Shown piece after piece: positions 14,567 through 28,246 of a stretch of 32,000 nt of DNA; position 1 is the stretch's first letter, and the number at the start of each line of letters is the position of its first letter. A program made the translations under genes and the position numbers. The stretch comes from Pyrobaculum calidifontis JCM 11548 (GTDB lineage: Archaea; Thermoproteota; Thermoprotei; Thermoproteales; Thermoproteaceae): assembly GCF_000015805.1 (NCBI RefSeq), contig NC_009073.1, forward strand, positions 840,001-872,000. Direction: 5' to 3'. The notes below the pieces were generated by a model. That model was not told where the DNA came from. It searched no databases and saw only the letters and a program-made list of their open reading frames with translations.

Positions 14567-15453
14567 CCCTCCTTAGACGGGGCTGGCAAGACAGCCCTCT
14601 TGAAGCAAACAATAGCACTGTTTAAGGTTACTCCGTCGTCTACGTCAATCCCCTTGGCGAGGTGGCTGAGCGGCTTGTCGCCACTGAGGATTTGAGGGAT
14701 GTGGTGAAGAGGGCGTGGAAGGAGGTGCTCGGCGGCGTGGTTAACCCGGCGGCGCCGGCGCTTGTAGACCTCGCGCTTGCGGTGGCGTCTAGGGCGCTGA
14801 AGAGGGGCAAGAAGAGAGTCGCCATACTCGCCGACGACGTCTTTCAAGCTGTGGGAGTTGATAGGGCCAAGCTCCTTGTCAAGACTATGCTTAACCTCAT
14901 TGAATACCCGTCGGCCGACTACGATAAAATAGTCGTACTTGTAGCATCAAGCGAGGGGGTCACAAGAGAAAGAGTCGGGAAGCATAGGTGGGCCGAGTTG
15001 CGAGTCATGTGGAATATGCCGCGGAGCGGCTTTGAGCAACTCTACCACCTCCTCCCAAGCCCAAAGCCCCCATTCGACGATGTGTGGAGGTGGACTGGGG
15101 GCAATCCCGACGCCTTAGAGAGGCTTTTTGGGACCAGCTGGGACGTGGAGAAAGTGGCGGAAGACTTGGCGGTTGATAAGGGGCTGAGCGTGGCCTTTGC
15201 CGAGAGGTGGAGGGCGCATTTGGCCAAGGCGCTGGAGGACCCAGACTATCTCTGGGAAGAGCCCGAGGCAGAAGGGCTGGCAAAGGAGCTCGTAGAGAGA
15301 AATCTCGTCGTATTGTTAAAGGGGAGGAGGCCAGACGCTTGCATAGACCAGCCACCACCCGAAAAAGACCCAGAGCTCGGCATTGGGAAATATTATGCGT
15401 GGCAGACCCCTCTGCATAGAGAGGCTGTGAGGAGGGCGCTGGAGCTGACCTAA
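14567..15453 (+). pseudogene. Decayed Arch_ATPase (PF01637-like) paralog of the genes at 18051-20125
   Basis: Track ORF 14662..15453 aligns to residues ~75-340 of the intact paralogs (DDVFQAVGV, VVLVASSEGVTRERVG, TGGNP, QPPPEKDPELGIGKYYAWQTPLHREAV). The Walker A remnant DGAGKTALLKQ (14576-14608) is in a different frame. It is preceded by an in-frame TAG (14564-14566) and followed by a frameshift near 14620-14626. The N-terminal ~45 codons are unrecognisable. Confidence 0.65.
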
Positions 15454-18050: not shown

Positions 18051-19073
18051 CTACGCCACCTCTAACGCCTTTTTCACAGCCTCTCTATGTAGTGGGGTTT
18101 GCCACGCGTAGTGCTTCCCAATGCCTAGCTCTGGGTCTTTCTCGGGGGGCGGCTGGTCGACCCAGAGGTATGGCTTGCGATCCCATACCCTAACAATCAA
18201 GTTCTTCTCGACGAGCATGTCCCTAAGCTCTTGCACCTCCCTCTCCCCAATCCTCCTAAATATCACGTCGGGGTCTTCCACAGCCTCTTTGAGAACTTCA
18301 AGCTTGACGCTGTCTAGTCCAGACACTACATCATAGAGGCTTTTGGATATTACGAGCCTCTCCACCAGTTGTTCCACGTCCCACCTAGTTTCGAAGAGTC
18401 TTTCCAAGAACCTTGGGTTACCGCCTGTCCACTTCCACACTTCGTCGAAGGGAGGCTTGGGGTCGGGTAGCGTTTCATACAACTGGCGAAAGCCCTCCCT
18501 CGCCATGTTCCACGTTACAAAAATAGTGGCCCAGCTGTGCCGACCCACACGCTCCCTCGTGACGCCTTCACTCGACGCCACTAGCACGACTATTTTGTCG
18601 TATTCGGCGGGTGGCCACTCTATCAAGTTGAGTAGAGCTTTGACGTAGGCCTCTGCATTCTCAACTCCAATGGCTTGGAATATGTCGTCCATGAGGACCG
18701 CAACCTTTGCCTTGTGGAATTTTTGGATTATCCACCCTGCCACGTTTATTACCAGGTCTACGGCCTTGGCTAATGGGTCAGAGAATACGCTGAATGCCTT
18801 CTCCACAAGCTCCCTCGCCGAGGGAGAGTATTGGAGGATTTCCTCAGCCCTCTTGGCTAGAGGATTGGCGTATAAGACGTGGTAGCTGAACTCCTCCTCT
18901 AGGACGGCCTTGGCTTGTTTGAGGAGGGCCGTCTTGCCACAGCCCTCGGGGCCGTACACGACGTGTACTGTGTAGGTGCCTCTCTCGGCTAGCTTGGCTA
19001 TTTGCTCCAGGGCCACGTCTCTGTCTGTAAACTCCGTCTCTCTGCCGGCGAAGGCCAGCTTGATCCTCTTCAC
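18051..19073 (-). CDS. Arch_ATPase (PF01637-like AAA+) family protein, tandem copy 1
   Basis: FTDRDVALEQI...VVYGPEGCGKTALLKQ (Walker A), VAVLMDDIFQA (Walker B), TGGNPRFL, C-terminal wHTH-like LVEKNLIV. 340 aa, GTG start. Confidence 0.8.
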   Translation of the reverse strand: MKRIKLAFAGRETEFTDRDVALEQIAKLAERGTYTVHVVYGPEGCGKTALLKQAKAVLEEEFSYHVLYANPLAKRAEEILQYSPSARELVEKAFSVFSDPLAKAVDLVINVAGWIIQKFHKAKVAVLMDDIFQAIGVENAEAYVKALLNLIEWPPAEYDKIVVLVASSEGVTRERVGRHSWATIFVTWNMAREGFRQLYETLPDPKPPFDEVWKWTGGNPRFLERLFETRWDVEQLVERLVISKSLYDVVSGLDSVKLEVLKEAVEDPDVIFRRIGEREVQELRDMLVEKNLIVRVWDRKPYLWVDQPPPEKDPELGIGKHYAWQTPLHREAVKKALEVA

Positions 19074-19091: not shown

Positions 19092-19105
19092 AGTTTAAGA
19101 GGTTA
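19092..19105 (-). promoter_or_regulatory. Conserved 14-nt promoter element TAACCTCTTAAACT upstream of ATPase copy 1
   Basis: Identical 14-mer occurs at 20145-20158 upstream of copy 2, at 19-20 nt from each GTG start. Here it overlaps the stop codon of copy 2. Confidence 0.6.
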
Positions 19106-20125
19106 CTTCCTCGTAACCTCCAGCGCACTCCTCACAGCCTCTCTGTGCAGAGGGGTCTGCCACGCAAAGTAGCGGCCGATGCCCAGCTCTGGGTCTCTCT
19201 CGGGCGGCGGCTGGTCAATCCAGAGAAACGGCTTGCGGTCCCCTATCTCTATTATGAGGTTTTTCTCAGTAAGCTGGCTTATTAGGCTCTTAGCCTCCCT
19301 GTACCTCTTCAAGAGGACGTCTGGGTCTTCGACGGCCTCCTCAAGAATCTGCCTCTCCACGTCAGACAGAGAGTATACGAACCCCACAAGCCCTTTACCG
19401 CCCCCCAACGCCGCCACTACTTCCTCCACCCCCCACCCAACCTTGTAGAAATTTTCGAGGTACCTCGGATTGCCCCCCGTCAGCCTCCACACTTCGTCGA
19501 AGGGAGGCTTTGGCCCCGGGAGTTGCTCGTATAGTTGGCGGAAGCCCTCCCTAGCCATATTCCACATAACCTTGATCGTCGCCCAACTGTGCCTCCCCAC
19601 CCTCTCCCTCGTGACGCCTTCACTCGACGCCACTAGCACTACTACTCTGTCGTATTCGGCGGGTGGCCACTCAATGAGGTTGAGTAGGGCTTTGACGTAC
19701 GCCTCTGCGTTTTCCACACCCACCGCCTGAAATATGTCGTCCATCAACACGGCCACTCTCGATCTTCTAAGCCTCTTCATAATCCAGCCGGCGACGGCTA
19801 TTGTGACATCTACCATCTTGCCCCACGGGTCCGGCGTCGCGCTAAGGACTTCTTTGACTATGCCTTCTGCAGACGGCGAGTACTGAAGGACCTCCTCGGC
19901 TTTTTTGGCCAGGGGATTTGCATAAACGACGTGATACCCATACTCCTCCTCTAGGATGGCCTTAGCTTGTTTCAAAAACGCCGTCTTTCCACACCCCTCT
20001 GGCCCATACACGACATAGACCGGGAAAGTCCCGCGCTCGCCAAACTCTCTGACCTGCTCCAGAGCCCTCTCCCTATCCACAAACTCAACCTCAAGGCCGG
20101 CAAACGAGACCTTGATCCTCTTCAC
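19103..20125 (-). CDS. Arch_ATPase (PF01637-like AAA+) family protein, tandem copy 2
   Basis: Same architecture as copy 1 (VVYGPEGCGKTAFLKQ, VAVLMDDIFQA, TGGNPRYL). The central region shows stretches of near-identical nucleotide sequence with copy 1, e.g. CCTCGTGACGCCTTCACTCGACGCCACTAGCAC. Confidence 0.8.
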   Translation of the reverse strand: MKRIKVSFAGLEVEFVDRERALEQVREFGERGTFPVYVVYGPEGCGKTAFLKQAKAILEEEYGYHVVYANPLAKKAEEVLQYSPSAEGIVKEVLSATPDPWGKMVDVTIAVAGWIMKRLRRSRVAVLMDDIFQAVGVENAEAYVKALLNLIEWPPAEYDRVVVLVASSEGVTRERVGRHSWATIKVMWNMAREGFRQLYEQLPGPKPPFDEVWRLTGGNPRYLENFYKVGWGVEEVVAALGGGKGLVGFVYSLSDVERQILEEAVEDPDVLLKRYREAKSLISQLTEKNLIIEIGDRKPFLWIDQPPPERDPELGIGRYFAWQTPLHREAVRSALEVTRK

Positions 20126-20269: not shown

Positions 20270-20788
20270 CTAGCGCGCGTGTGAGGTAAACTCTACGGCG
20301 ACTGGGTAGGCGCGGTTTGGCTGTGCCTTGGCGTCGATGAGGACCTCCAGTCTCGCGGGGAGGCACTGTCCCGCCTTAAAGACTGCGTTTAGCGGCGTGT
20401 AGTTGCCAAAGCTGTATCCAAACGCTGTCCCGTTGACGTACAGCAGGAAGACCTTCACCTCGGGCGGCGCCTCCACTACCCTCGCCGAGACAGCCACGTC
20501 GGCCCCCGCCACGTTGCACACATACACGTCGTACACGGCGAGGGCACCCACAGGCGCCACAAGGCCAAAAGTCTGCGTCCCATTCCAACCCACCAACACC
20601 GCCAAGGGAACCGCCGACACGCCGCCGCCACCCGCCAGGCCCAGCGCAACCCCCGGCGCCACCCCCACCAAAGAGAACACCACCAACAACAAGAGGGCCA
20701 CCGCGCCGAGCACCACCACGGCGAGAGAAGGCCTCCTTTCCTCCTCTTCCTCCACCTTCGCCACAGCCCTCTCCACCGCCGACGTCAT
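20270..20788 (-). CDS. Membrane-anchored beta-rich protein, paralog of the 204-aa secreted protein (putative anchor subunit)
   Basis: Start taken at ATG 20788 (ATGA overlap with the upstream stop). Acidic N-tail is followed by a hydrophobic stretch (LAVVVLGAVALLLLVVFSLVGV). The C-terminal domain shares VCN...GQC-x10-D...YPVAVEFT with the 204-aa protein. Confidence 0.6.
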   Translation of the reverse strand: MTSAVERAVAKVEEEEERRPSLAVVVLGAVALLLLVVFSLVGVAPGVALGLAGGGGVSAVPLAVLVGWNGTQTFGLVAPVGALAVYDVYVCNVAGADVAVSARVVEAPPEVKVFLLYVNGTAFGYSFGNYTPLNAVFKAGQCLPARLEVLIDAKAQPNRAYPVAVEFTSHAR

Positions 20789-23049
20789 CCCCACGCCTCC
20801 ACAGTCCTCACTATTAAGTACTCCCCCGGCCCAGCCCTGAAGCCTATGTACTGCGCGGCTGGCGGCGCGGCGCAGCCAAAGCGGGCCAACGGGCCACCAG
20901 CGGAGTCTCTCACGATTACGTCGCCCAGGGCGGCGAGTGGCCTAAGCTCTACCCACCTCGACGAGGGGCTGTAGTAGCCGTAGACACAGCCCGCCGACGC
21001 GCCGCGTAGGTAGAGGCCGAAGGCCTCGCCCAGCGCTGAGGTTAGGGCAACGTACTTTCCCTTGCCTGTGAAGTTGGCCACGTATGTAAGCGCGCCTTGG
21101 ACAAGCTGAGTGTAGGCCGTGGCGCCGTTTGCCACGAACAAGGCGTAGTTAGTCTGCCACACGTAGGCCCCCGGCGCCGTGTTGCTATACCAGCCGGCCG
21201 GCAGTGGACAAGAGTAGCTCTGCACAGTGACGGGCCCCCACTCCACTGCGAAGTCGCCTAGGGTGCCATCAGAGTCGGCATAGCTTGCATCTGTCACGAC
21301 TAGGGCCACCGATGTGACAGCCCCCTGCGCAGTCAGCGTTATGGTGAAGGCGTAGTCGCCCGGCGTTATGCTACCAAGCCGCGTAGCCACGTAACGTGTA
21401 CCCGAGGGAGTACAGGCGCCGGCGCTGTCTACTGTACACACCACCTGCTGTGTAAACGGCGAGACTATTATGCCGTTGTAGTCGACGGTGTCGTAGTAGT
21501 AATAGATATACTCCCTATCCGCCGACCCGTCGTAGTCCACGTCCACAGCCACGTCCACATAGACCACGTTGTTACGTGCCTCGTTTCCGCCCCGGATGTA
21601 CCTAACGCCTACGGAGATCTGAGCCCCCGTGGCGTTAAACTTGTAGTCTATGAAAGCCGCCGCAACGCCGTAGTCCGTGGAGGGTGTGCCAGAGGAACCG
21701 CGGGCATCTACCTGCGTCACCAGCCTCCAACTGTCAGTCCTAACAAACACGTCAGTACGATAGCTACCAAGCTCCCAAACCCTCAGCCCGGGGTCACACG
21801 CCGGAGCAACCACAGTTATGGCGAAGTTCTGCCAGTCAACCCAGAAGTCGCCAGAGGGGCTACCAGAGGCGGCGCCCGACGCGTCTACTACCACAAACGC
21901 AATGCCGACGATTCGCCCCACCTGCGTTGTGGGCAGTGTAATAGATATGGTGAAGGAATTGCCACTAGTCACACTACTAACCTTCGTCAGCCTGTACTGA
22001 GGCGGCGGCGTCGTGGTGGGGTCTCCCTGGCTATTTATACTAGCCACGCTACTCCCCCTATTGATAAATATAGACACGATAAGGCCGTTGCCCTGGGCTG
22101 TGTCGTAGACGTAGGCTATGTACTCCACGTCGGCTACGCCGTCTCCGTTCTCGTCAACGCCCACGGAGAGGTAGGCCACGTTGTTACGCGTATCGCCGCT
22201 AAGGGCGTAGGCGCCGGAGACTTGCACCGTAGCCCCAGCCGCTACTACTAGGCCCCAGCGGTCTGCCACTCTGTATATGGCTGAGGAGAGGCCCCAGTCG
22301 GTGCTACTTCTTGCGTCTATCTGCGTCCTTATCGACGAGCCGGTGTACCGCACCGGCGACACTGCAAGGTAAGTGGAGCTGTACACTGCGTATTCGTCGA
22401 TGTAGGTTGGCTTTGAGCTGTAGGCCAAGGAGTCGCTATAGGACGGAAGCGTGGCCGTGTAGGTGCCTCCGGCGCAAGTGTACTGCTGGGTGTAGGTGTG
22501 GCCTGGGCAGGAAAAGCTCCACGACGTCAGTTTCGACATGGGCTCTGCTGTGAAGTTGACCAGCTGTACGGCGTATATGCCTCCTTTGTTGAACTGGGCT
22601 GTGGCGAGGATGGAGTACCGCCCCGTCGTCGCCATAGACCACACGAGAGGCGCCGGGGCGGGAGCGTAGGATCCCGCGTTTTGCGTGTTACCTATCTGCT
22701 GGACGTTACCCAGCGAGATGGTGTACGTCCCGCCTGGGTTTCCGCTACGGCCAACTACCTCAAGCCTTGTCTGCCAGCCGGCGTCTCTGGCGGCGAATAT
22801 GCCCACTGTATATGTCTCGGGCCACCCCGGCTTAAACTTGACGTAGTAGTACGTCACGTTGTACGGCCCAGAGTACTGGTACCACGCCTTCGCCAGTGGG
22901 TACAGCGACTGGTTCAAGTTCTTGGAGATGGGGGCCAGCGTGGCGTTGGCAGCCCACTGCGACGCGTTGAAGTAGGCGAGGAGCGCCAGGGCCCCCGCCG
23001 CGGCGAGGGCCACCAAGGCGAGAGAGGCGGCTCTTGCACGGCGCCTCAT
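20785..23049 (-). CDS. Large (754 aa) secreted/N-anchored multi-domain surface protein with internal tandem duplication
   Basis: N-terminus MRRRARAASLALVALAAAGALALLAYFNASQWAANATL (charged, hydrophobic, then a motif shared with the 204-aa protein). Many N-x-S/T sequons. Two ~180-aa repeats. Confidence 0.7.
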   Translation of the reverse strand: MRRRARAASLALVALAAAGALALLAYFNASQWAANATLAPISKNLNQSLYPLAKAWYQYSGPYNVTYYYVKFKPGWPETYTVGIFAARDAGWQTRLEVVGRSGNPGGTYTISLGNVQQIGNTQNAGSYAPAPAPLVWSMATTGRYSILATAQFNKGGIYAVQLVNFTAEPMSKLTSWSFSCPGHTYTQQYTCAGGTYTATLPSYSDSLAYSSKPTYIDEYAVYSSTYLAVSPVRYTGSSIRTQIDARSSTDWGLSSAIYRVADRWGLVVAAGATVQVSGAYALSGDTRNNVAYLSVGVDENGDGVADVEYIAYVYDTAQGNGLIVSIFINRGSSVASINSQGDPTTTPPPQYRLTKVSSVTSGNSFTISITLPTTQVGRIVGIAFVVVDASGAASGSPSGDFWVDWQNFAITVVAPACDPGLRVWELGSYRTDVFVRTDSWRLVTQVDARGSSGTPSTDYGVAAAFIDYKFNATGAQISVGVRYIRGGNEARNNVVYVDVAVDVDYDGSADREYIYYYYDTVDYNGIIVSPFTQQVVCTVDSAGACTPSGTRYVATRLGSITPGDYAFTITLTAQGAVTSVALVVTDASYADSDGTLGDFAVEWGPVTVQSYSCPLPAGWYSNTAPGAYVWQTNYALFVANGATAYTQLVQGALTYVANFTGKGKYVALTSALGEAFGLYLRGASAGCVYGYYSPSSRWVELRPLAALGDVIVRDSAGGPLARFGCAAPPAAQYIGFRAGPGEYLIVRTVEAWG
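21205..22332 (-). repeat. Intragenic tandem duplication (two ~180-aa domains) within the 754-aa protein
   Basis: Repeat 1 (aa ~240-418) has ...IDARSSTDWG...TRNNVAYLSVGVDENGDGVADVEYIAYVYDTAQGNGLIVS...FTISITL...VVVDASG...GDFWVDW. Repeat 2 (aa ~441-615) has ...VDARGSSGTPSTDYG...ARNNVVYVDVAVDVDYDGSADREYIYYYYDTVDYNGIIVS...FTITLT...VVTDASY...GDFAVEW. Confidence 0.8.
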
Positions 23050-23705
23050 GCAGAAGCCATAAAGTCTAGCTTCTCTCTGTCCTCTGGGCTTAGTGTGTCG
23101 GGGTTCACAGAGGCAAGTATTACCTCAGCCGCGGCCTTGGGGTTGACGTAGTAGTACGTGAAGGGGCCTATCCTCACCGACTTGACGCGTCCCTCCCGCT
23201 CGAGGACGTAGAGGTGCCACTGCACCGAACTCCAAGACCTCCCCATCGCCCTGGCGATCTGCGAAAGAGTGGCGGCGCCCATCTTCTCCACGACGCGGAC
23301 AATCTCCCGCCTGACGGGGTCCTCGGCCCTCGCCGTCTTGACCCTCGCCAAAATGGGGGCAATGGGGGCTAGGAGGAGCTCCCTCCTGTTTGAGAGAAGG
23401 TGGCTGAGGCCGGCCGCCGCGGCGGCGCCCACGGCCAGCGCCAGTATGGGGGCAGAGGGGGGCAACTGCGTGGGAGGCGGCTGGGGGGTGCGCCACTGCA
23501 CGTCAACCCAGCCCGAGAGGAGGAGCGGCTCTCCGCCCGTGTTGACGCAGGCGATGGCCATCCGGCTGTACACCTCAGCCACCCCCGTGAAGTTGCACAC
23601 CGGGGGAAGCGAAGCCGACACTACAGCCGACGTCCCCGGAGGCGGCTGTACCACAAACATCCACATGGTGAGCGGAGCGAGTAACAATAAAACAGTAGCA
23701 TTCAT
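23046..23705 (-). CDS. Membrane-tethered winged-helix (ArsR/MarR-like) transcription regulator with an extracytoplasmic N-terminal domain
   Basis: N-terminal hydrophobic segment (VLLLLAPLTMWMFVV), ~65-aa Cys-containing segment, Pro-rich linker, second TM (ILALAVGAAAAAGLSHLL). Then the wHTH: VRREIVRVVEKMGAATLSQIARAMGRSWSSVQWHLYVLEREGRVKSVRIGPFTYYYV. Confidence 0.7.
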   Translation of the reverse strand: MNATVLLLLAPLTMWMFVVQPPPGTSAVVSASLPPVCNFTGVAEVYSRMAIACVNTGGEPLLLSGWVDVQWRTPQPPPTQLPPSAPILALAVGAAAAAGLSHLLSNRRELLLAPIAPILARVKTARAEDPVRREIVRVVEKMGAATLSQIARAMGRSWSSVQWHLYVLEREGRVKSVRIGPFTYYYVNPKAAAEVILASVNPDTLSPEDREKLDFMASA

Positions 23706-23724
23706 AGCACCCCCCTCATACGTA

Positions 23725-23732
23725 CTTAAATG
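23725..23732 (-). promoter_or_regulatory. Possible internal TATA-like box (CATTTAAG) plus SD-like GAGGGGGGTG ahead of the wHTH gene
   Basis: The box overlaps the GTPase stop codon, 20 nt upstream of ATG 23705. The 20-nt spacer (23706-23725) also carries a purine-rich SD-like run, so either internal initiation mode is possible. Confidence 0.35.
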
Positions 23733-24223
23733 TTTTGTGTTGCGCTAAGCCCCTCTAGGAGCACCTTTAGCAGAGTGTCCGGGCTGTCTTTCAGCGCTGA
23801 GGTGTAGTAGACGCGGGTTGCGCCAAGGGCTTTCGCCGCCTCTTCGCCGCGGACAAACGTCCCGCGCTCCTCTGCCAAATCCCGCTTGTTGCCTATCAGA
23901 ATTTTGCGGGGAGCATAGCTGGCAAGCGGCGCAAGCTGAAGGAGCTCCTCCAATGTGCGCCGGTCTGTGACATCGTACATGTAGGCAATTAAGTCGATCT
24001 GGGCGCCGTAAGTCTTAACGGCCTCGTTGTAAAGCGCCACAACCTCTGCGGCGTATTGCCCAGGGGCGTCTAGCAGGAAGAGCTCCATGTCCCCAACCCT
24101 CAGCGCGTAGAACTGGGGCCTCCTCGTCACTCTCGGCGTCCTGGAGAGGCCCAGCAGGCGATATATGTAAGTAGTCTTGCCCACTCCACCCACCCCGAGG
24201 AAAGACACGGCGTGTCGCTTCAT
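23726..24223 (-). CDS. Ras-superfamily small GTPase (165 aa)
   Basis: Internal start M85 of the track ORF (ATG 24223, ATGA overlap with the upstream stop). G1 GVGGVGKT, G3 DAPGQ, G4 NKRD, G5 TSAL. The upstream 84 codons of the track ORF are R/P-rich shadow sequence. Confidence 0.8.
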   Translation of the reverse strand: MKRHAVSFLGVGGVGKTTYIYRLLGLSRTPRVTRRPQFYALRVGDMELFLLDAPGQYAAEVVALYNEAVKTYGAQIDLIAYMYDVTDRRTLEELLQLAPLASYAPRKILIGNKRDLAEERGTFVRGEEAAKALGATRVYYTSALKDSPDTLLKVLLEGLSATQNI

Positions 24224-24582
24224 ACCAGGAACGGGTCGCCTAGCCCCAGCGCCCTGGCCACCACGGCGAGGAGGATAATGTAGACCCAGGCCGCGGCGGC
24301 GAAGAGGTAGAAGGTCCACCTCCGGGTCCACATCCCCCACCAAGTGTAGGCGATAGACACGGCGAGGAGGCTCACCGCGAGTAGGTAGGTGAAGCGGGCA
24401 TAGAAGAGCTGCCACTGCTGTAGGAGGAGGGTTAGGACGAAGCCGGCGATGAAGGAGACGAGCGCCCCAGTCCACGTGGTGAAGGTGGCGCGCCTAGCCA
24501 CGTAGAATATATATACCAGGGGCGCCAGCGCCGCCACTGCGCCGCCAGCCGCCGACAGTAGCATCATCTCGGCGAAATTCAT
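24220..24582 (-). CDS. Small polytopic membrane protein (about 4 TM, 120 aa)
   Basis: Start at ATG 24582 (ATGA overlap). Almost entirely hydrophobic helices separated by short R/W-rich loops. Begins MNFA like its neighbour (MNWA). Confidence 0.6.
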   Translation of the reverse strand: MNFAEMMLLSAAGGAVAALAPLVYIFYVARRATFTTWTGALVSFIAGFVLTLLLQQWQLFYARFTYLLAVSLLAVSIAYTWWGMWTRRWTFYLFAAAAWVYIILLAVVARALGLGDPFLV

Positions 24583-24980
24583 ATGACCCACAGCGTGTAG
24601 CTATTTAAAGCCAGCGCCGCGAGGTAGAGGGCGAATAGGTACACATAGGGGGCGCATGATATGAGCGCCAGGTCGAGGTCGCGTCTCAGGGGCCGCAGGG
24701 CGATGTGTAGCTGGAGGAGCTGCGCCGCGAGGAGGAGGGCGAGGCCCAGCACTGCGGAAAGCCTAAGCGAGGCGAGTCCCCCATAGGCCACGGTAATCCA
24801 TACTCCATAGACGTTGGCCGCCGTCGCCAAGGCGAGGAAGGGGACAAGGACGTCTCGGTGTTTGAACATGAGCTGTGGGGCCAGGCCGTACCTCTTCGCC
24901 ACCACGTTCTCGGCGTAGACTCTGCCGAAGGCCACGGCGAGCCCCGCCGCGACGCCCACGAGGAGGACTGCCCAATTCAT
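24579..24980 (-). CDS. Small polytopic membrane protein (about 4 TM, 133 aa)
   Basis: Start at ATG 24980 (ATGA overlap with the 410-aa gene stop). Hydrophobic helices with short basic loops. Confidence 0.6.
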   Translation of the reverse strand: MNWAVLLVGVAAGLAVAFGRVYAENVVAKRYGLAPQLMFKHRDVLVPFLALATAANVYGVWITVAYGGLASLRLSAVLGLALLLAAQLLQLHIALRPLRRDLDLALISCAPYVYLFALYLAALALNSYTLWVI

Positions 24981-26209
24981 GGCCCCCACGGCTTAAGCCC
25001 CTCTACTCTGACGTCTACGACCACTGGCCAGCCGTCCCAGCCGCCCGTGGGATCGGCCACGACATAGAATGGCCCAAACCAGCCGGTGGGGAGCCCCTTG
25101 GGCAGGGCGAGCCGCTGGAGGGGCGCCTCGGGGCCAGCCACCCAGTATCTAACAGTGCCGTTGTAGAGCCAGACGCCTGGCGAGACCTCCACCGGCGCGG
25201 CGCCTCTGCCTGGGGCAAAGTAGGACACATACGTCGTGAGCCGGGGCTCGGAGGGGAAGTGGTAGTACAGTACCCCGCCCCACATGCCCACGGGGGTGCT
25301 GTACCAATAGGCGTACAGCTCTCCGTAGCCGCTTCCGTTGGCCACCACGACCCTCCTCAGGGTGGTGTTTATATAGCTGGCGTTGAAGGTGTACGTCGCC
25401 AGTATATACCCCTCGGGGGTGGGCACGCCGAATTTGTACTCATAGGCCGTGTAGTTGGGCGGAGGCGGGGTTGGGGCCTTCCCCACGCCGTTGGGGCACG
25501 GCGCGTCGTATATGTAGAGCTGGCCTCTGCCCTCTAGCCTTATGAAGAAGCCGTAGCGGGTCTGGCCCTCCCTTGAGGGCAAGAGAGGCAGCGGGCGCAC
25601 CTGTGGGGCCACTGGCGCATAGCGCAGGGCCTCTGGCAGTAGGAGCGACTTGTTGTACACCGCGGCGCAGCCCACAAGCGGCGTTCTGCCAATTGGCCTC
25701 TCCCAGGCGTATACCTCTCCGCCGCCGACTTGCACAAACTGCCACCCCCTGCCCTCCAGCGTGACCACCGCCCGCCGCGACGCTGGGTACCAGTCCACGA
25801 GCTTTACCCTGACTTCCACGGCCCTCCACCACCCCGACGCGTGGGTGAAGTTGAGGACGCAGCGCCCCTCCCACCCCGGCGGCACCGTTATGTTGACCCA
25901 CTTGGCCCCGGGCGGCGGTGTGAGGAAGTGCGGCGGGACAAATGGGCAGTTCCCCCCGACGTGCACCTCCACAGGCGCCATCAGCTCCACCTTTACCGCC
26001 CTGTCGTACTGCCACGGGGCGTAGGGCGAGCTGTAGAGGTAGAGCACGCCGTCGCGCCACGCGGCGTAGGAGGGGAGGACCCCCGGCCCTACCTCAGCCG
26101 GGGAGCCCGAGGTAAACACATACTCCCCGTAGGGAGAGGACAGGGCGATGAGAAAAACTAGAGAGGGGAGGAAAAACAGAAAAAACCGCTTTACCTTTTC
26201 CCCCTTCAC
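24977..26209 (-). CDS. Secreted protein of unknown function (410 aa), W/Y/P/G-rich
   Basis: N-terminal signal-like MKGEKVKRFFLFFLPSLVFLIALSS and several N-x-S/T sequons. No C-terminal anchor. GTG start 2 nt after the upstream stop. Confidence 0.65.
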   Translation of the reverse strand: MKGEKVKRFFLFFLPSLVFLIALSSPYGEYVFTSGSPAEVGPGVLPSYAAWRDGVLYLYSSPYAPWQYDRAVKVELMAPVEVHVGGNCPFVPPHFLTPPPGAKWVNITVPPGWEGRCVLNFTHASGWWRAVEVRVKLVDWYPASRRAVVTLEGRGWQFVQVGGGEVYAWERPIGRTPLVGCAAVYNKSLLLPEALRYAPVAPQVRPLPLLPSREGQTRYGFFIRLEGRGQLYIYDAPCPNGVGKAPTPPPPNYTAYEYKFGVPTPEGYILATYTFNASYINTTLRRVVVANGSGYGELYAYWYSTPVGMWGGVLYYHFPSEPRLTTYVSYFAPGRGAAPVEVSPGVWLYNGTVRYWVAGPEAPLQRLALPKGLPTGWFGPFYVVADPTGGWDGWPVVVDVRVEGLKPWGP

Positions 26210-26211
26210 CC

Positions 26212-26826
26212 TTACGGACTTGTGCTAAACACTACGTTTACCTGGTACGTGGCAATTACAGTCTTGCCGTCTCTAGCCGACGTAGGTAGCGATGGGTCTA
26301 CTAGCACATAGGCGCCCACAGTGGCACACTGGCCTGGCCCAATGGACACGCTACCTGTGGCGCTCTGTGTGACACTGGTGCCCTGGAATTGTACGTAGTT
26401 AGGCGTGGTGGTGGGGTTGACGAAGTACACTCGGAAGTCTTTTATGTAGCTCTCGTAGTTAGTGGTACCTACTGTGCCGACGGCCACTAGCTTGGCGTAT
26501 AGTGTCCCGCTGTAGTACTTGTTGCAGAGCTGTAGGACGTTGGTGTAGTTGGTGGGGTCGCCGGTGAAGCCCACTATCGAGATTCTCGTCACGTTGTAGC
26601 CGGTGGAGGGGTCGTAGTAGTAGGAGACGTAGACGTATCTGTTGTAGCCGCTACTGTCTGACCTAGTTATTGTGGTGTCTGTGCCGGGGTACTTCATGGC
26701 TGGAGGCAGTGTGGCGTTGATCAACCAGTACGTCAGGTTAGTAAACGTCAGCGTAGCCATCGCCAGCGCGGCAACTGCCAGCGCCGCCAACGCGATTAGT
26801 GGTCTGTAGTTCTTCTTCCTCGCCAT
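26212..26826 (-). CDS. Secreted beta-rich protein (204 aa), candidate filament/matrix subunit
   Basis: MARKKNYRPLIALAALAVAALAMATLTFTNLTYWLINATLPP signal-like N-terminus. T/Y/V/N-rich body, two Cys (LCN, GQC), many sequons. First gene after a strong TATA box. Confidence 0.7.
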   Translation of the reverse strand: MARKKNYRPLIALAALAVAALAMATLTFTNLTYWLINATLPPAMKYPGTDTTITRSDSSGYNRYVYVSYYYDPSTGYNVTRISIVGFTGDPTNYTNVLQLCNKYYSGTLYAKLVAVGTVGTTNYESYIKDFRVYFVNPTTTPNYVQFQGTSVTQSATGSVSIGPGQCATVGAYVLVDPSLPTSARDGKTVIATYQVNVVFSTSP

Positions 26827-26846
26827 GTGCGCCTGAGACTCATAAG

Positions 26847-26856
26847 TTTAAATATT
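26847..26856 (-). promoter_or_regulatory. TATA box (AATATTTAAA) for the surface operon
   Basis: Lies 21 nt upstream of ATG 26826, consistent with a leaderless transcript. Confidence 0.6.
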
Positions 26857-27361
26857 CAACGTTGTGCCGTTGTATACGTACATGTGCCATGGGCGTCAGA
26901 CATCGAGTAGCATGCAAGCGGGGCCGTCTGTCTCGTTCCGCGTCTGCGCACACCGCCTCTCGCAAGGCGCGCCTAGCGCCGCCGTGGTTTGTCACGGCCG
27001 TTGTTACATATTTTGCGGCGGGCCCCCCATCTTACAGCGCCTAGAGACGCCCAGGGGAGCCTTGCATGCCGTTTGTTATTTCACGCTGGTTTCCGTGCCA
27101 CAGAAGCGGTCTGAAGAGTAGTAGGGTGGATTGGCCCTGCGCCGGGCTGTTGGCTCGACGGCCTGGCCCCAAGGGCGAGCTCCCTAGGCGTGGCTGTGGA
27201 CGGGGGGTCAACAAGGGCGGGATTGCCCGTGGTCTACCGCTATGGATGCGCCATGTGTTTACCTTTTTCTCCCTCTGCTCTTGGAGAGCTTAGCCGCCTA
27301 ATATGCCAGTTATGGTCAACGAGAGACTCACGACGTAGTAGGCCGCGTCTTGTATGTCCCG

Positions 27362-28246
27362 TTAGGCGACTATTTGCACTGCTTTGCACATTTGTACTAG
27401 TATTTCGAATAGTTGTTTGAAGTCGCCTGCGCGTTTTAGGACTTTTGCCTCTCTCTCGTCGTCGTATATTGGGAGGCCGGCGGCCTTTTTTATTCTGCCT
27501 ATGTCTCTGCAGATTTCTAGTCTGCGTTTTAGTAGGTGCATGAGGGCTCCGTCTACCCAGTCTAGGGCCTCTCTGAGGGTGGAGAGGTCTTGTCCTTGTG
27601 GGGCTAGGCCTATGGCGAGGAGGCCGGCGTAGTAGGCGTCGGGGGTGGTCTGGCCGGGGGCTGTGGCTTCGCCTAGGGAGACGTACATTATGGGGCTTCC
27701 CAGGGCGGCGGCGGCGAGCCTGGTGTAGACTCCGTGGGGGCCCATGGCGAAGGCCACTGTGGGCTTCTCTAGGGCGCCTATTAGGGAGAGGACTCTGAGC
27801 CCGTCGGCTGGGCTCCTCGCGTAGGTGGCTATTTTCACCACGTCGCCCACCTCGGCGGCTTTTCTGCCCCACTGCATCAGCACCTCCAGTGGGGGCGTCT
27901 GTTCGAAGTCGTGTCTGCTGGCTATCACCTTGGTGCCTCCGCTGGGGGCCAGCTCCCGTGCGGCTGGGGACTCAGCCTCGACGTCTATGTAGTGGGGCCT
28001 TAGGTCGAGGAGCGACGCGTAGAGCCTTATCCTCTCCTCCTCTGTCCCCCTCCAGGCGCCGCCCTCCTCCCTCCTTCTCACGGTGAATATGGCCACCTTC
28101 TTCTCCACTGCCTCCCTCAGCGCCTGCATCATTTGCTCGTCGACGCGCTCGGCGTAGTCCAGCCTGTACTCAACGCAGGGCGTCGGCGCCTCCAGCGCCC
28201 TGCGTATGTCTGCCACGCCTCTCACGGGCACGGCGCCGCATATCAA
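27362..28246 (-). CDS. aroD: Bifunctional 3-dehydroquinate dehydratase (type I) / chorismate mutase (AroQ) fusion
   Basis: Only the last ~294 codons of track ORF 27362..28903 are real. TTG 28246 gives (M)ICGAVPVRGVADIRRALEAPTPCVEYRLDY. AroD motifs are SRHDFEQTP, VVKIATYA and AFAMGPHGVYTRL. The C-terminal 75 aa (27365-27589), LREALDWVDGALMHLLKRRLEICRDIGRIKKAAGLPIYDDEREAKVL, is an AroQ chorismate mutase pattern. Confidence 0.8.
   Translation of the reverse strand: MICGAVPVRGVADIRRALEAPTPCVEYRLDYAERVDEQMMQALREAVEKKVAIFTVRRREEGGAWRGTEEERIRLYASLLDLRPHYIDVEAESPAARELAPSGGTKVIASRHDFEQTPPLEVLMQWGRKAAEVGDVVKIATYARSPADGLRVLSLIGALEKPTVAFAMGPHGVYTRLAAAALGSPIMYVSLGEATAPGQTTPDAYYAGLLAIGLAPQGQDLSTLREALDWVDGALMHLLKRRLEICRDIGRIKKAAGLPIYDDEREAKVLKRAGDFKQLFEILVQMCKAVQIVA

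Follow-up and report, generated by a model that had tools for sequence, protein, structure and literature searches.

The window analysed here is the whole stretch of 32,000 nucleotides taken from Pyrobaculum calidifontis JCM 11548 (contig NC_009073.1, positions 840,001 to 872,000). It carries eight consecutive minus-strand genes that we identify, with little room for doubt, as the published archaeal bundling pilus (ABP) operon, Pcal_0910 to Pcal_0903 (Table 1). A six-frame listing of open reading frames (ORFs) and a junction script place these genes where the initial annotation had drawn them, with the sizes it had given. They also recover every junction it described: five four-nucleotide ATGA overlaps (24977-24980, 24579-24582, 24220-24223, 23046-23049 and 20785-20788), a 2-nt gap between abpA and abpB, and a 20-nt spacer that precedes the winged helix-turn-helix (wHTH) gene and contains the Shine-Dalgarno-like run GAGGGGGGTG. 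In a Kyte-Doolittle hydrophobicity scan, seven of the eight products bear hydrophobic segments and the small GTPase bears none, just as had been described. The genes can be regarded as real because each of the eight has homologues (36-75% identical) in other Thermoproteales genomes, where seven of them stand in the same order. The choice of start codon does affect two of the junctions, because metagenome gene callers shorten both abpB, which they start 30 codons later to give a product of 380 aa that has lost its signal peptide, and the GTPase, which becomes 152 aa long (the nr entry has 160 aa).

The product of the first gene is identical at 204 of 204 residues (E 2.3e-131, PDB sequence search) to chain A of PDB entry 7UEG ('Pilin'), which is AbpA (Pcal_0910), the ABP subunit of P. 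calidifontis. The products of the seventh and eighth genes are likewise 100% identical to P. calidifontis proteins, the latter to the entry 'hypothetical protein Pcal_0903 [Pyrobaculum calidifontis JCM 11548]'. The ABP operon described by Wang et al. (PNAS 2022; PMC9245690) comprises the same eight genes, with the same sizes and in the same order, and it is this agreement, together with the identity of the AbpA sequence, that establishes the locus. The correspondence extends to the make-up of the operon, with its two small multi-transmembrane (TM) proteins, GTPase, wHTH protein, large beta-rich protein and small membrane protein, and no sequence difference separates the two. The locus is therefore real but already known, having been published in 2022 together with the cryo-electron microscopy structure of the pilin. 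The initial annotation had mentioned the TasA-like bundling pilus locus of P. calidifontis as a possible match and had described a surface-structure operon headed by a secreted beta-rich protein; both suggestions proved correct, the secreted protein being the AbpA pilin itself. To the published description we add AbpA-like regions in Pcal_0904 and Pcal_0903, a reading of Pcal_0903 as a protein with one TM segment where the paper has four, and the occurrence in the Thermofilales of homologues of Pcal_0904 and of the wHTH protein, where the paper lists only abpA and abpB as common to Thermoproteales and Thermofilales.

Table 1. Features of the ABP operon in the window, in the order of transcription
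Feature	Coordinates	Strand	Basis
Conserved element GCACAACGTTGAATATTTAAACTT, putative promoter, including the TATA box AATATTTAAA (26847-26856)	26846..26870	-	Sequence and conservation
abpA (Pcal_0910), 204-aa major bundling pilin, ATG start	26212..26826	-	Identical to 7UEG chain A
abpB (Pcal_0909), 410-aa secreted beta-rich protein, GTG start	24977..26209	-	Size, position and signal peptide agree with PMC9245690
Pcal_0908, 133-aa small membrane protein	24579..24980	-	Several hydrophobic segments
Pcal_0907, 120-aa small membrane protein	24220..24582	-	Several hydrophobic segments
Pcal_0906, 165-aa Ras-like small GTPase	23726..24223	-	Pfam MMR_HSR1 8.7e-8, Ras 1.7e-6
Pcal_0905, 219-aa membrane-tethered wHTH protein, probable regulator	23046..23705	-	Pfam HTH_20, HTH_5; NCBIfam ArsR/SmtB
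Pcal_0904, 754-aa protein with predicted signal peptide, donor strand, half jelly-roll, duplicated beta-sandwiches and C-terminal domain	20785..23049	-	hhalign, AlphaFold2 (AF2)
Pcal_0903, 172-aa protein, predicted TM-anchored jelly-roll	20270..20788	-	AF2, hhalign, Foldseek

The mode of assembly of AbpA has been set out by Wang et al. (PMC9245690). The protein carries a Sec signal peptide that is cut by the general signal peptidase I at AMA↓TL, a site that we find at residues 22-26, with T25 as the mature N-terminus. It is N-glycosylated at N37, N78 and N93 and folds as a TasA-like jelly-roll, whose N-terminal donor strand (the B strand) enters the groove of the neighbouring subunit as the pilin polymerises outside the cell. 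The resulting filaments form bundles that connect cells in biofilms. Assembly proceeds without any chaperone, usher, ATPase or dedicated peptidase, and the authors found no chaperone or usher in the genome. Our own domain searches are in line with this picture. Among the eight products, Pfam and NCBIfam recognise only the small-GTPase domain and an ArsR-type wHTH; they detect no FlaI/PilB, PilC/FlaJ, prepilin peptidase, sortase or signal peptidase, which bears out the earlier remark that type IV pilus, sortase and dedicated signal-peptidase machinery is missing here, and no PapD-like chaperone or usher. No domain of the type IV pilus or archaellum systems is present, and the cleavage site of AbpA is of class I (AxA).

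The AbpA family is small: 1.84 billion proteins yielded just 37 representative clusters at E <=1e-3. AbpA has no match at E up to 1 to the TasA/camelysin profile (Pfam PF12389, Peptidase_M73), and a match to DUF6690 (E 0.0055) was rejected as noise. According to Wang et al., the relationship between AbpA and TasA becomes visible only by profile-profile or structural comparison; AbpA works like TasA and is a remote homologue of it rather than a family member by profile match. P. calidifontis has a single abpA, whereas two paralogues head the operon in several other Pyrobaculum (L009:10001-11330, L014:4959-6445, L015:5875-7227, L017:6555-7921), with approximately 34% and 53% identity to the AbpA of the window; the pairs are mostly in tandem and are divergently arranged in P. 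ferrireducens.

AbpA is not the only product of the operon with an AbpA-type N-terminus. A tblastn search with AbpA matched the start of Pcal_0904 orthologues, and hhalign comparison of AbpA with the Pcal_0904 family returned a probability of 96.8-97.2% (E 3e-11 to 2.6e-10). With the signal peptides removed, AbpA 25-122 still aligned with Pcal_0904 23-105 at 94.2% (E 1.1e-7), while three control comparisons (AbpA with the remaining part of Pcal_0904, AbpA with AbpB, Pcal_0903 with Pcal_0904) all fell below 1%. The AbpA-like donor strand and half jelly-roll occupy residues from about 23 to 105, within an N-terminal domain of approximately 170 aa. Every Pcal_0904 orthologue, including those of the Thermofilales, has an AxA motif at the register of the proven AbpA cleavage site, and the motif that follows the site changes in parallel with that of the cognate AbpA from lineage to lineage: TLTFTNLTYWLINATLPPAMK in AbpA and LLAYFNASQWAANATLAPISK in Pcal_0904 of P. 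calidifontis, AAITITNITEWSIQAKPAPIKK and AAVTITNITEWRIVAMESPLVK in the Thermofilaceae locus, and AAITLTNITQWTVQAQTAPIVK and AAVIITNVAEWSVIAAESPVPK in that of Infirmifilum.

The remainder of Pcal_0904 contains an internal tandem duplication of a beta-sandwich (residues 242-418 and 445-614; 39% identity, E 1e-19), each repeat having one conserved acidic loop, VDENGDGVADVEY and VDVDYDGSADREY respectively, that resembles the DxDxDG calcium-binding loops. The AF2 model is all-beta, with a mean predicted local distance difference test (pLDDT) score of 75, apart from residues 2-35, which form one low-confidence helix. Foldseek searches with the full-length model returned generic matches to carbohydrate-binding modules (CBMs), jelly-rolls and other beta-sandwiches at very high root-mean-square deviation, uninformative on the N-terminal domain, and the PDB sequence search gave only matches with E >0.1. 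Taken together, the N-terminal features suggest that Pcal_0904 is likely to be a secreted minor subunit with a donor strand, serving as nucleator and/or tip adhesin.

Pcal_0903, the last product of the operon, appears to be a membrane-tethered AbpA-like domain. In its AF2 model an acidic cytoplasmic N-terminus and a single helix (22-40) are joined by a Gly-rich linker of low confidence to a beta-sandwich (62-171; pLDDT >90). A diversified alignment of its orthologues matched AbpA at an hhalign probability of 78% (E 1.8e-5), and its ectodomain matched mature AbpA at 88% (E 3.3e-6; controls <1%). Residues 74-155 of Pcal_0903 are aligned with residues 82-180 of AbpA, in its C-terminal half; the two conserved cysteines coincide, as do the CN and GQC..EVL[IV]D motifs. 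When the model was searched against the PDB with Foldseek, 7UEG_A gave the best TM-score (0.39, query-normalised) and, at 19%, a near-highest identity (E 9.9e-3), among many generic beta-sandwiches. Pcal_0903 has no donor-strand motif of the AbpA type. Its orthologues (36-40% identical) follow the Pcal_0904 orthologue in five other Pyrobaculum loci, and a match to KdpB (E 0.005) was dismissed as noise. On this moderate evidence, Pcal_0903 is likely to be a membrane anchor, into which the AbpA nearest the cell would insert its free donor strand.

The conservation of the operon was followed in thirteen loci, obtained from a scan of species-representative genomes with the AbpA alignment and from contigs encoding homologues of Pcal_0904 and of the GTPase, and compared with the eight products by tblastn. 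Five of them (Pyrobaculum WP30, P. oguniense, P. ferrireducens, P. arsenaticum and a metagenome contig) share one arrangement, in which abpA and abpB are followed by the two small membrane-protein genes, the wHTH gene, a Pcal_0904-like gene and a Pcal_0903-like gene. In Thermoproteus UBA157 only Pcal_0903 is missing from this series, and two further loci retain part of it. In none of the loci with kept order (L007, L009, L013, L014, L015, L017) does the GTPase lie inside the operon. Identity to the proteins of the window reaches 63-75% for the small membrane proteins in Pyrobaculum and 45-67% in two Thermoproteus loci. In all loci examined the operon lies within a few kilobases of shikimate-pathway genes.

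Beyond the Thermoproteales, homologues of Pcal_0904 with approximately 33% identity (E 1e-65 to 1e-70) stand beside abpA in both Thermofilales loci, one in the Thermofilaceae (L012:9080-14088) and one in Infirmifilum (L011:153-4070), where the order is abpA, a gene of 458 or 465 codons and then the Pcal_0904 homologue. A TM-tethered wHTH gene lies upstream in the former only. Just downstream of the operon in the window are genes for PF01637 ATPases, two of them tandem paralogues of 340 aa (18051-19073 and 19103-20125) and one a shorter copy (14662-15453); a 463-aa ATPase-like protein also follows the abp genes in the Thermofilaceae locus, probably by coincidence. Some metagenomic homologues of Pcal_0903 (P0009-P0015) have an N-terminal extension of 25-30 aa (..EFVDRDVALGQ..), and its resemblance to the N-terminus of the downstream PF01637 ATPases suggests rearrangements at the Pcal_0903 end of the operon.

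The TATA box reported upstream of the operon could be confirmed, at a distance of 20 nt from the first ATG. It is no mere chance match, because it lies within an element of 18-24 nt, of the form GC[A/G]CAACGTTGAATATTTAAAC (also given as GCACAACGTTGAATATTTAAAC), that is kept upstream of abpA in all eight of the other Pyrobaculum promoter regions aligned and, in a diverged version, in two Thermoproteus loci. The TATA sequence occurs once in the window, as does the 18-nt core, for which the chance expectation is 0 matches. Within the upstream intergenic region only this element is conserved, the flanking DNA giving no alignment to other species. Conservation of this kind suggests that the element acts as a promoter or operator, and its end, approximately 20 nt before the abpA start codon, makes a leaderless or nearly leaderless transcript probable. 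In P. ferrireducens the element precedes both abpA copies. The intergenic region itself (26827-27361) measures 535 bp, seemingly long given how tightly the genes of the window are packed; it is 100% identical in six metagenome contigs and contains no called gene. Searches with Rfam (gathering threshold for the whole window, E-value mode for 26700-27500) and a tRNA scan gave no match at all, which leaves the region upstream of abpA with no known RNA, and weak tblastx matches connect the region with small ORFs downstream of the aroD/chorismate-mutase gene of P. oguniense.

The second gene, abpB, encodes a protein with an N-terminal hydrophobic segment (Kyte-Doolittle), which Wang et al. likened to TapA in its first domain and for which they proposed a function as initiator, anchor or adhesin. 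We obtained no Pfam, NCBIfam or PDB sequence match for it. Orthologues with 39-61% identity occupy the same position in other Pyrobaculum and Thermoproteus loci, and comparison of the Thermoproteales AbpB with the 458- and 465-aa proteins beside abpA in the Thermofilales gave an hhalign probability of 0.9%, the published structure-based link being unseen by sequence. Frameshifts interrupt abpB in two complete genomes, both of them at simple repeats, namely G9 in P. oguniense TE7 (L013:7783-7791) and (TA)6 in Pyrobaculum sp. WP30 (L009:12033-12046). The homologous sites in the window, near 25732 and 25522, have no such repeat and the P. calidifontis gene is intact. Assembly error and pseudogenisation could each explain these frameshifts, as could slipped-strand phase variation, by which abpB may be switched on and off.

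The two small membrane proteins that follow, Pcal_0908 and Pcal_0907, are each credited with four TM segments in PMC9245690. Their orthologues are 67-74% and 63-74% identical, respectively, those of Pcal_0908 sharing invariant polar motifs such as HRD and SC, and profile searches gave no PDB match for either protein. The two are not paralogues of one another (hhalign 0.4%), a role as paired-SMR or ArnE/F-like flippases was considered and found no supporting sequence evidence, and a Peptidase_A24 match to Pcal_0907 (Pfam, E 0.21) fell below the cutoff and was set aside as compositional noise.

Pcal_0906, the only soluble cytoplasmic product of the operon, belongs by sequence to the small GTPases, scoring 32.7 bits for MMR_HSR1 (cutoff 21.9) and 28.2 for Ras (cutoff 21.6); the motifs G1 (GVGGVGKT), G3 (DAPGQ), G4 (NKRD) and G5 (SAL) can be recognised by eye. 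The family, named 'Rab family GTPase' at NCBI, is spread throughout the Thermoproteales. The pairing of secreted modules with a Ras-like GTPase, presented in the initial annotation as a feature of the system, does not generalise: none of the nine other Thermoproteales loci has the gene inside the operon, in agreement with PMC9245690. Homologues with 50-51% identity do adjoin abpA divergently in P. oguniense (L013:6106-6582, minus strand) and P. arsenaticum (L017:8001-8492), and others, including closer ones, lie in unrelated neighbourhoods (56-58% in P. neutrophilum and a Pyrobaculum metagenome-assembled genome, 49% in Thermoproteus tenax). The recurring adjacency is suggestive and could be coincidence; a functional link between the GTPase and the ABP in some Pyrobaculum species is possible. 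In P. ferrireducens, two extra small genes (78 and 144 aa; L014:8536-9216) separate the wHTH gene from the second of the small membrane-protein genes, in the slot taken by the GTPase in P. calidifontis.

The wHTH protein, Pcal_0905, has a cytoplasmic ArsR-type domain at 129-195 (HTH_20, 1.7e-5; NCBIfam ArsR/SmtB, 2e-8) and hydrophobic segments at 1-21 and 85-105 in the Kyte-Doolittle scan, which enclose a Cys-containing ectodomain of approximately 60 aa. Its orthologues are 48-65% identical in those Thermoproteales loci that reach this far, and it is a homologue of this protein that lies beside abpA in the Thermofilaceae locus. The ectodomain showed a similarity probability of <1% to each of AbpA, AbpB, Pcal_0904 and Pcal_0903. 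From its architecture, Pcal_0905 is probably a membrane-bound one-component regulator that senses something extracellular and controls the operon.

Tentatively, and with confidence somewhat short of even, we propose that the ABP operon encodes a complete chaperone-free assembly line of three AbpA-derived proteins, namely Pcal_0904, AbpA and Pcal_0903. A single conserved promoter would drive abpA, translational coupling through the ATGA overlaps would carry expression into the seven downstream genes, and Pcal_0905 would control the operon from the membrane. Pcal_0904, cleaved at the AbpA register, would fill the empty groove at one end of the filament with its donor strand, acting as nucleator and/or as a distal tip that displays two CBM-like domains. 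AbpA would form the shaft, with its N-terminal strands directed toward the cell. At the end nearest the cell, the remaining free donor strand would be taken up by Pcal_0903, which would thereby terminate and anchor the filament. That all three steps hold jointly (Pcal_0904 starting or capping the groove end, AbpA adding with strands toward the cell and Pcal_0903 capturing the last strand at the membrane) we would put at nearly, or at best just about, an even chance. In the literature searched, no paper assigns tip, nucleator or anchor roles to Pcal_0904 or Pcal_0903.

No observation speaks against the identification of the locus; several points weigh against this proposal. Wang et al. place the initiator or anchor role on AbpB and give Pcal_0904 an N-terminal TM domain, preceding a large beta-rich ectodomain, in place of a cleaved signal, and the four TM segments they assign to Pcal_0903 conflict with the one helix of the AF2 model. 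The link between Pcal_0903 and AbpA is only moderate, with hhalign probabilities of 78-88%, a Foldseek E of ~1e-2 and many generic beta-sandwich matches. Pcal_0903 is, moreover, absent from Thermoproteus UBA157 and from the Thermofilaceae locus, and the Infirmifilum contig ends inside the Pcal_0904 homologue. Lastly, a single transcript is an assumption.

The same observations can be assembled in the opposite sense, with Pcal_0904 as an uncleaved, signal-anchored base next to the membrane, from which the first AbpA receives its donor strand, AbpB as initiator or adhesin, and Pcal_0903 as a self-complemented membrane protein unrelated to the filament ends. The TMHMM prediction of a TM segment at the Pcal_0904 N-terminus (PMC9245690) and the low-confidence helix at residues 2-35 of its model would suit such an arrangement, as would strand 62-66 of the Pcal_0903 model, which comes right after the linker and could occupy the protein's own groove, and the tentative attribution of anchoring to AbpB in the literature, repeated in a 2026 preprint on AbpX. 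We nevertheless consider the reversed roles rather less likely than not, given the AxA motif at the proven AbpA register in all Pcal_0904 orthologues, those of the Thermofilales included, and the agreement between the architecture of Pcal_0903 and that of the anchors proposed for the Tafi pili (see below).

A narrower view, that only abpA and abpB belong to the pilus and that the other six genes are merely co-located, with no direct part in assembly or anchoring, appears improbable. It draws on the generic nature of the published predictions for these six genes, on the restriction of the published Thermofilales counterparts to abpA and abpB, on the variable presence of the GTPase and on the small membrane proteins having no detectable relatives of known function. 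It sits poorly with the order of seven of the eight genes being kept across six other Thermoproteales loci, with the overlapping stop and start codons, with the AbpA-related sequence in Pcal_0904 and Pcal_0903, and with the homologues of Pcal_0904 and of the wHTH protein found beside abpA in Thermofilales loci. Least credible of all, and in effect refuted, is the headline of the initial annotation, a previously uncharacterised surface-assembly system with a Ras-like GTPase coupled to secreted beta-rich modules: a Pfam, NCBIfam or PDB sequence match is indeed lacking for six of the eight products and the operon encodes no known pilus machinery, but the first product is identical to a solved ABP pilin, the whole operon has been described (PMC9245690), so that its products belong to a characterised system, and the GTPase is inside the operon in none of the other loci examined.

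The proposed division of labour among Pcal_0904, AbpA and Pcal_0903 has counterparts in other donor-strand filaments. In Sulfolobus acidocaldarius, the thread subunit Saci_0406 is co-transcribed with the pilin-like Saci_0405, which has a donor strand and no acceptor site and for which a TapA-like function, as cap or nucleator, has been proposed (Gaines et al. Nat Commun 2022). Like the ABP, the thread is a Sec-dependent, chaperone-free donor-strand filament, and Saci_0405 parallels Pcal_0904; unlike the latter, which has 754 aa and large extra domains, Saci_0405 is small and has no predicted Sec signal, and no TM-anchored acceptor has been described for the thread. The haloarchaeal Tat-fimbriae (Tafi) loci encode TafA/TafE pilins, a TafC tip, a TafB regulator and the anchors TafF, TafF1 and TafF2, each consisting of one TM helix and a jelly-roll (PMC12337348). 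They share with the ABP the logic of pilin, tip, TM/jelly-roll anchor and regulator, and Pcal_0903 has the TafF1/TafF2 architecture, a likeness by which no homology is claimed. Tafi pili differ from the ABP in pilin topology and in using the Tat pathway, and their loci also encode a DUF5305 protein and TafD, a dedicated signal peptidase. According to the 2026 AbpX preprint, it is a general pattern of TasA-superfamily loci to include minor subunits, tips, anchors and regulators.

Similar considerations apply to the bacterial systems. The tapA-sipW-tasA operon of Bacillus subtilis resembles that of the ABP in its jelly-roll fibre subunit, in donor-strand complementation and in an accessory protein of the TapA type; TapA nucleates the fibre by supplying a strand, the role that we infer for Pcal_0904. 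A SipW-type dedicated peptidase has no equivalent in the ABP operon, which in turn has a membrane regulator, two small membrane proteins, a GTPase and a TM-anchored jelly-roll in addition. The bacterial chaperone-usher pili (type 1, P pili) also rely on donor-strand complementation and have a tip adhesin with extra domains, and their tip-first order is that of the model proposed here. In contrast, the ABP operon encodes no periplasmic chaperone or usher, the organism has no outer membrane, and the strand-only and groove-only terminal subunits of the ABP model would be arranged differently.

The significance of these observations lies in the question of how a donor-strand pilus starts, ends and attaches in an archaeon whose cells lack a chaperone, an usher, a sortase and an outer membrane. 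For the ends of the filament there are now two concrete candidates, an AbpA-type donor strand on Pcal_0904 and an AbpA-like jelly-roll on the membrane-anchored Pcal_0903. If the proposal is true, the polarity of the filament would be fixed, with the N-terminal strands facing the cell, and the roles of nucleator and anchor would move from AbpB, where the current literature places them, to Pcal_0904 and Pcal_0903.

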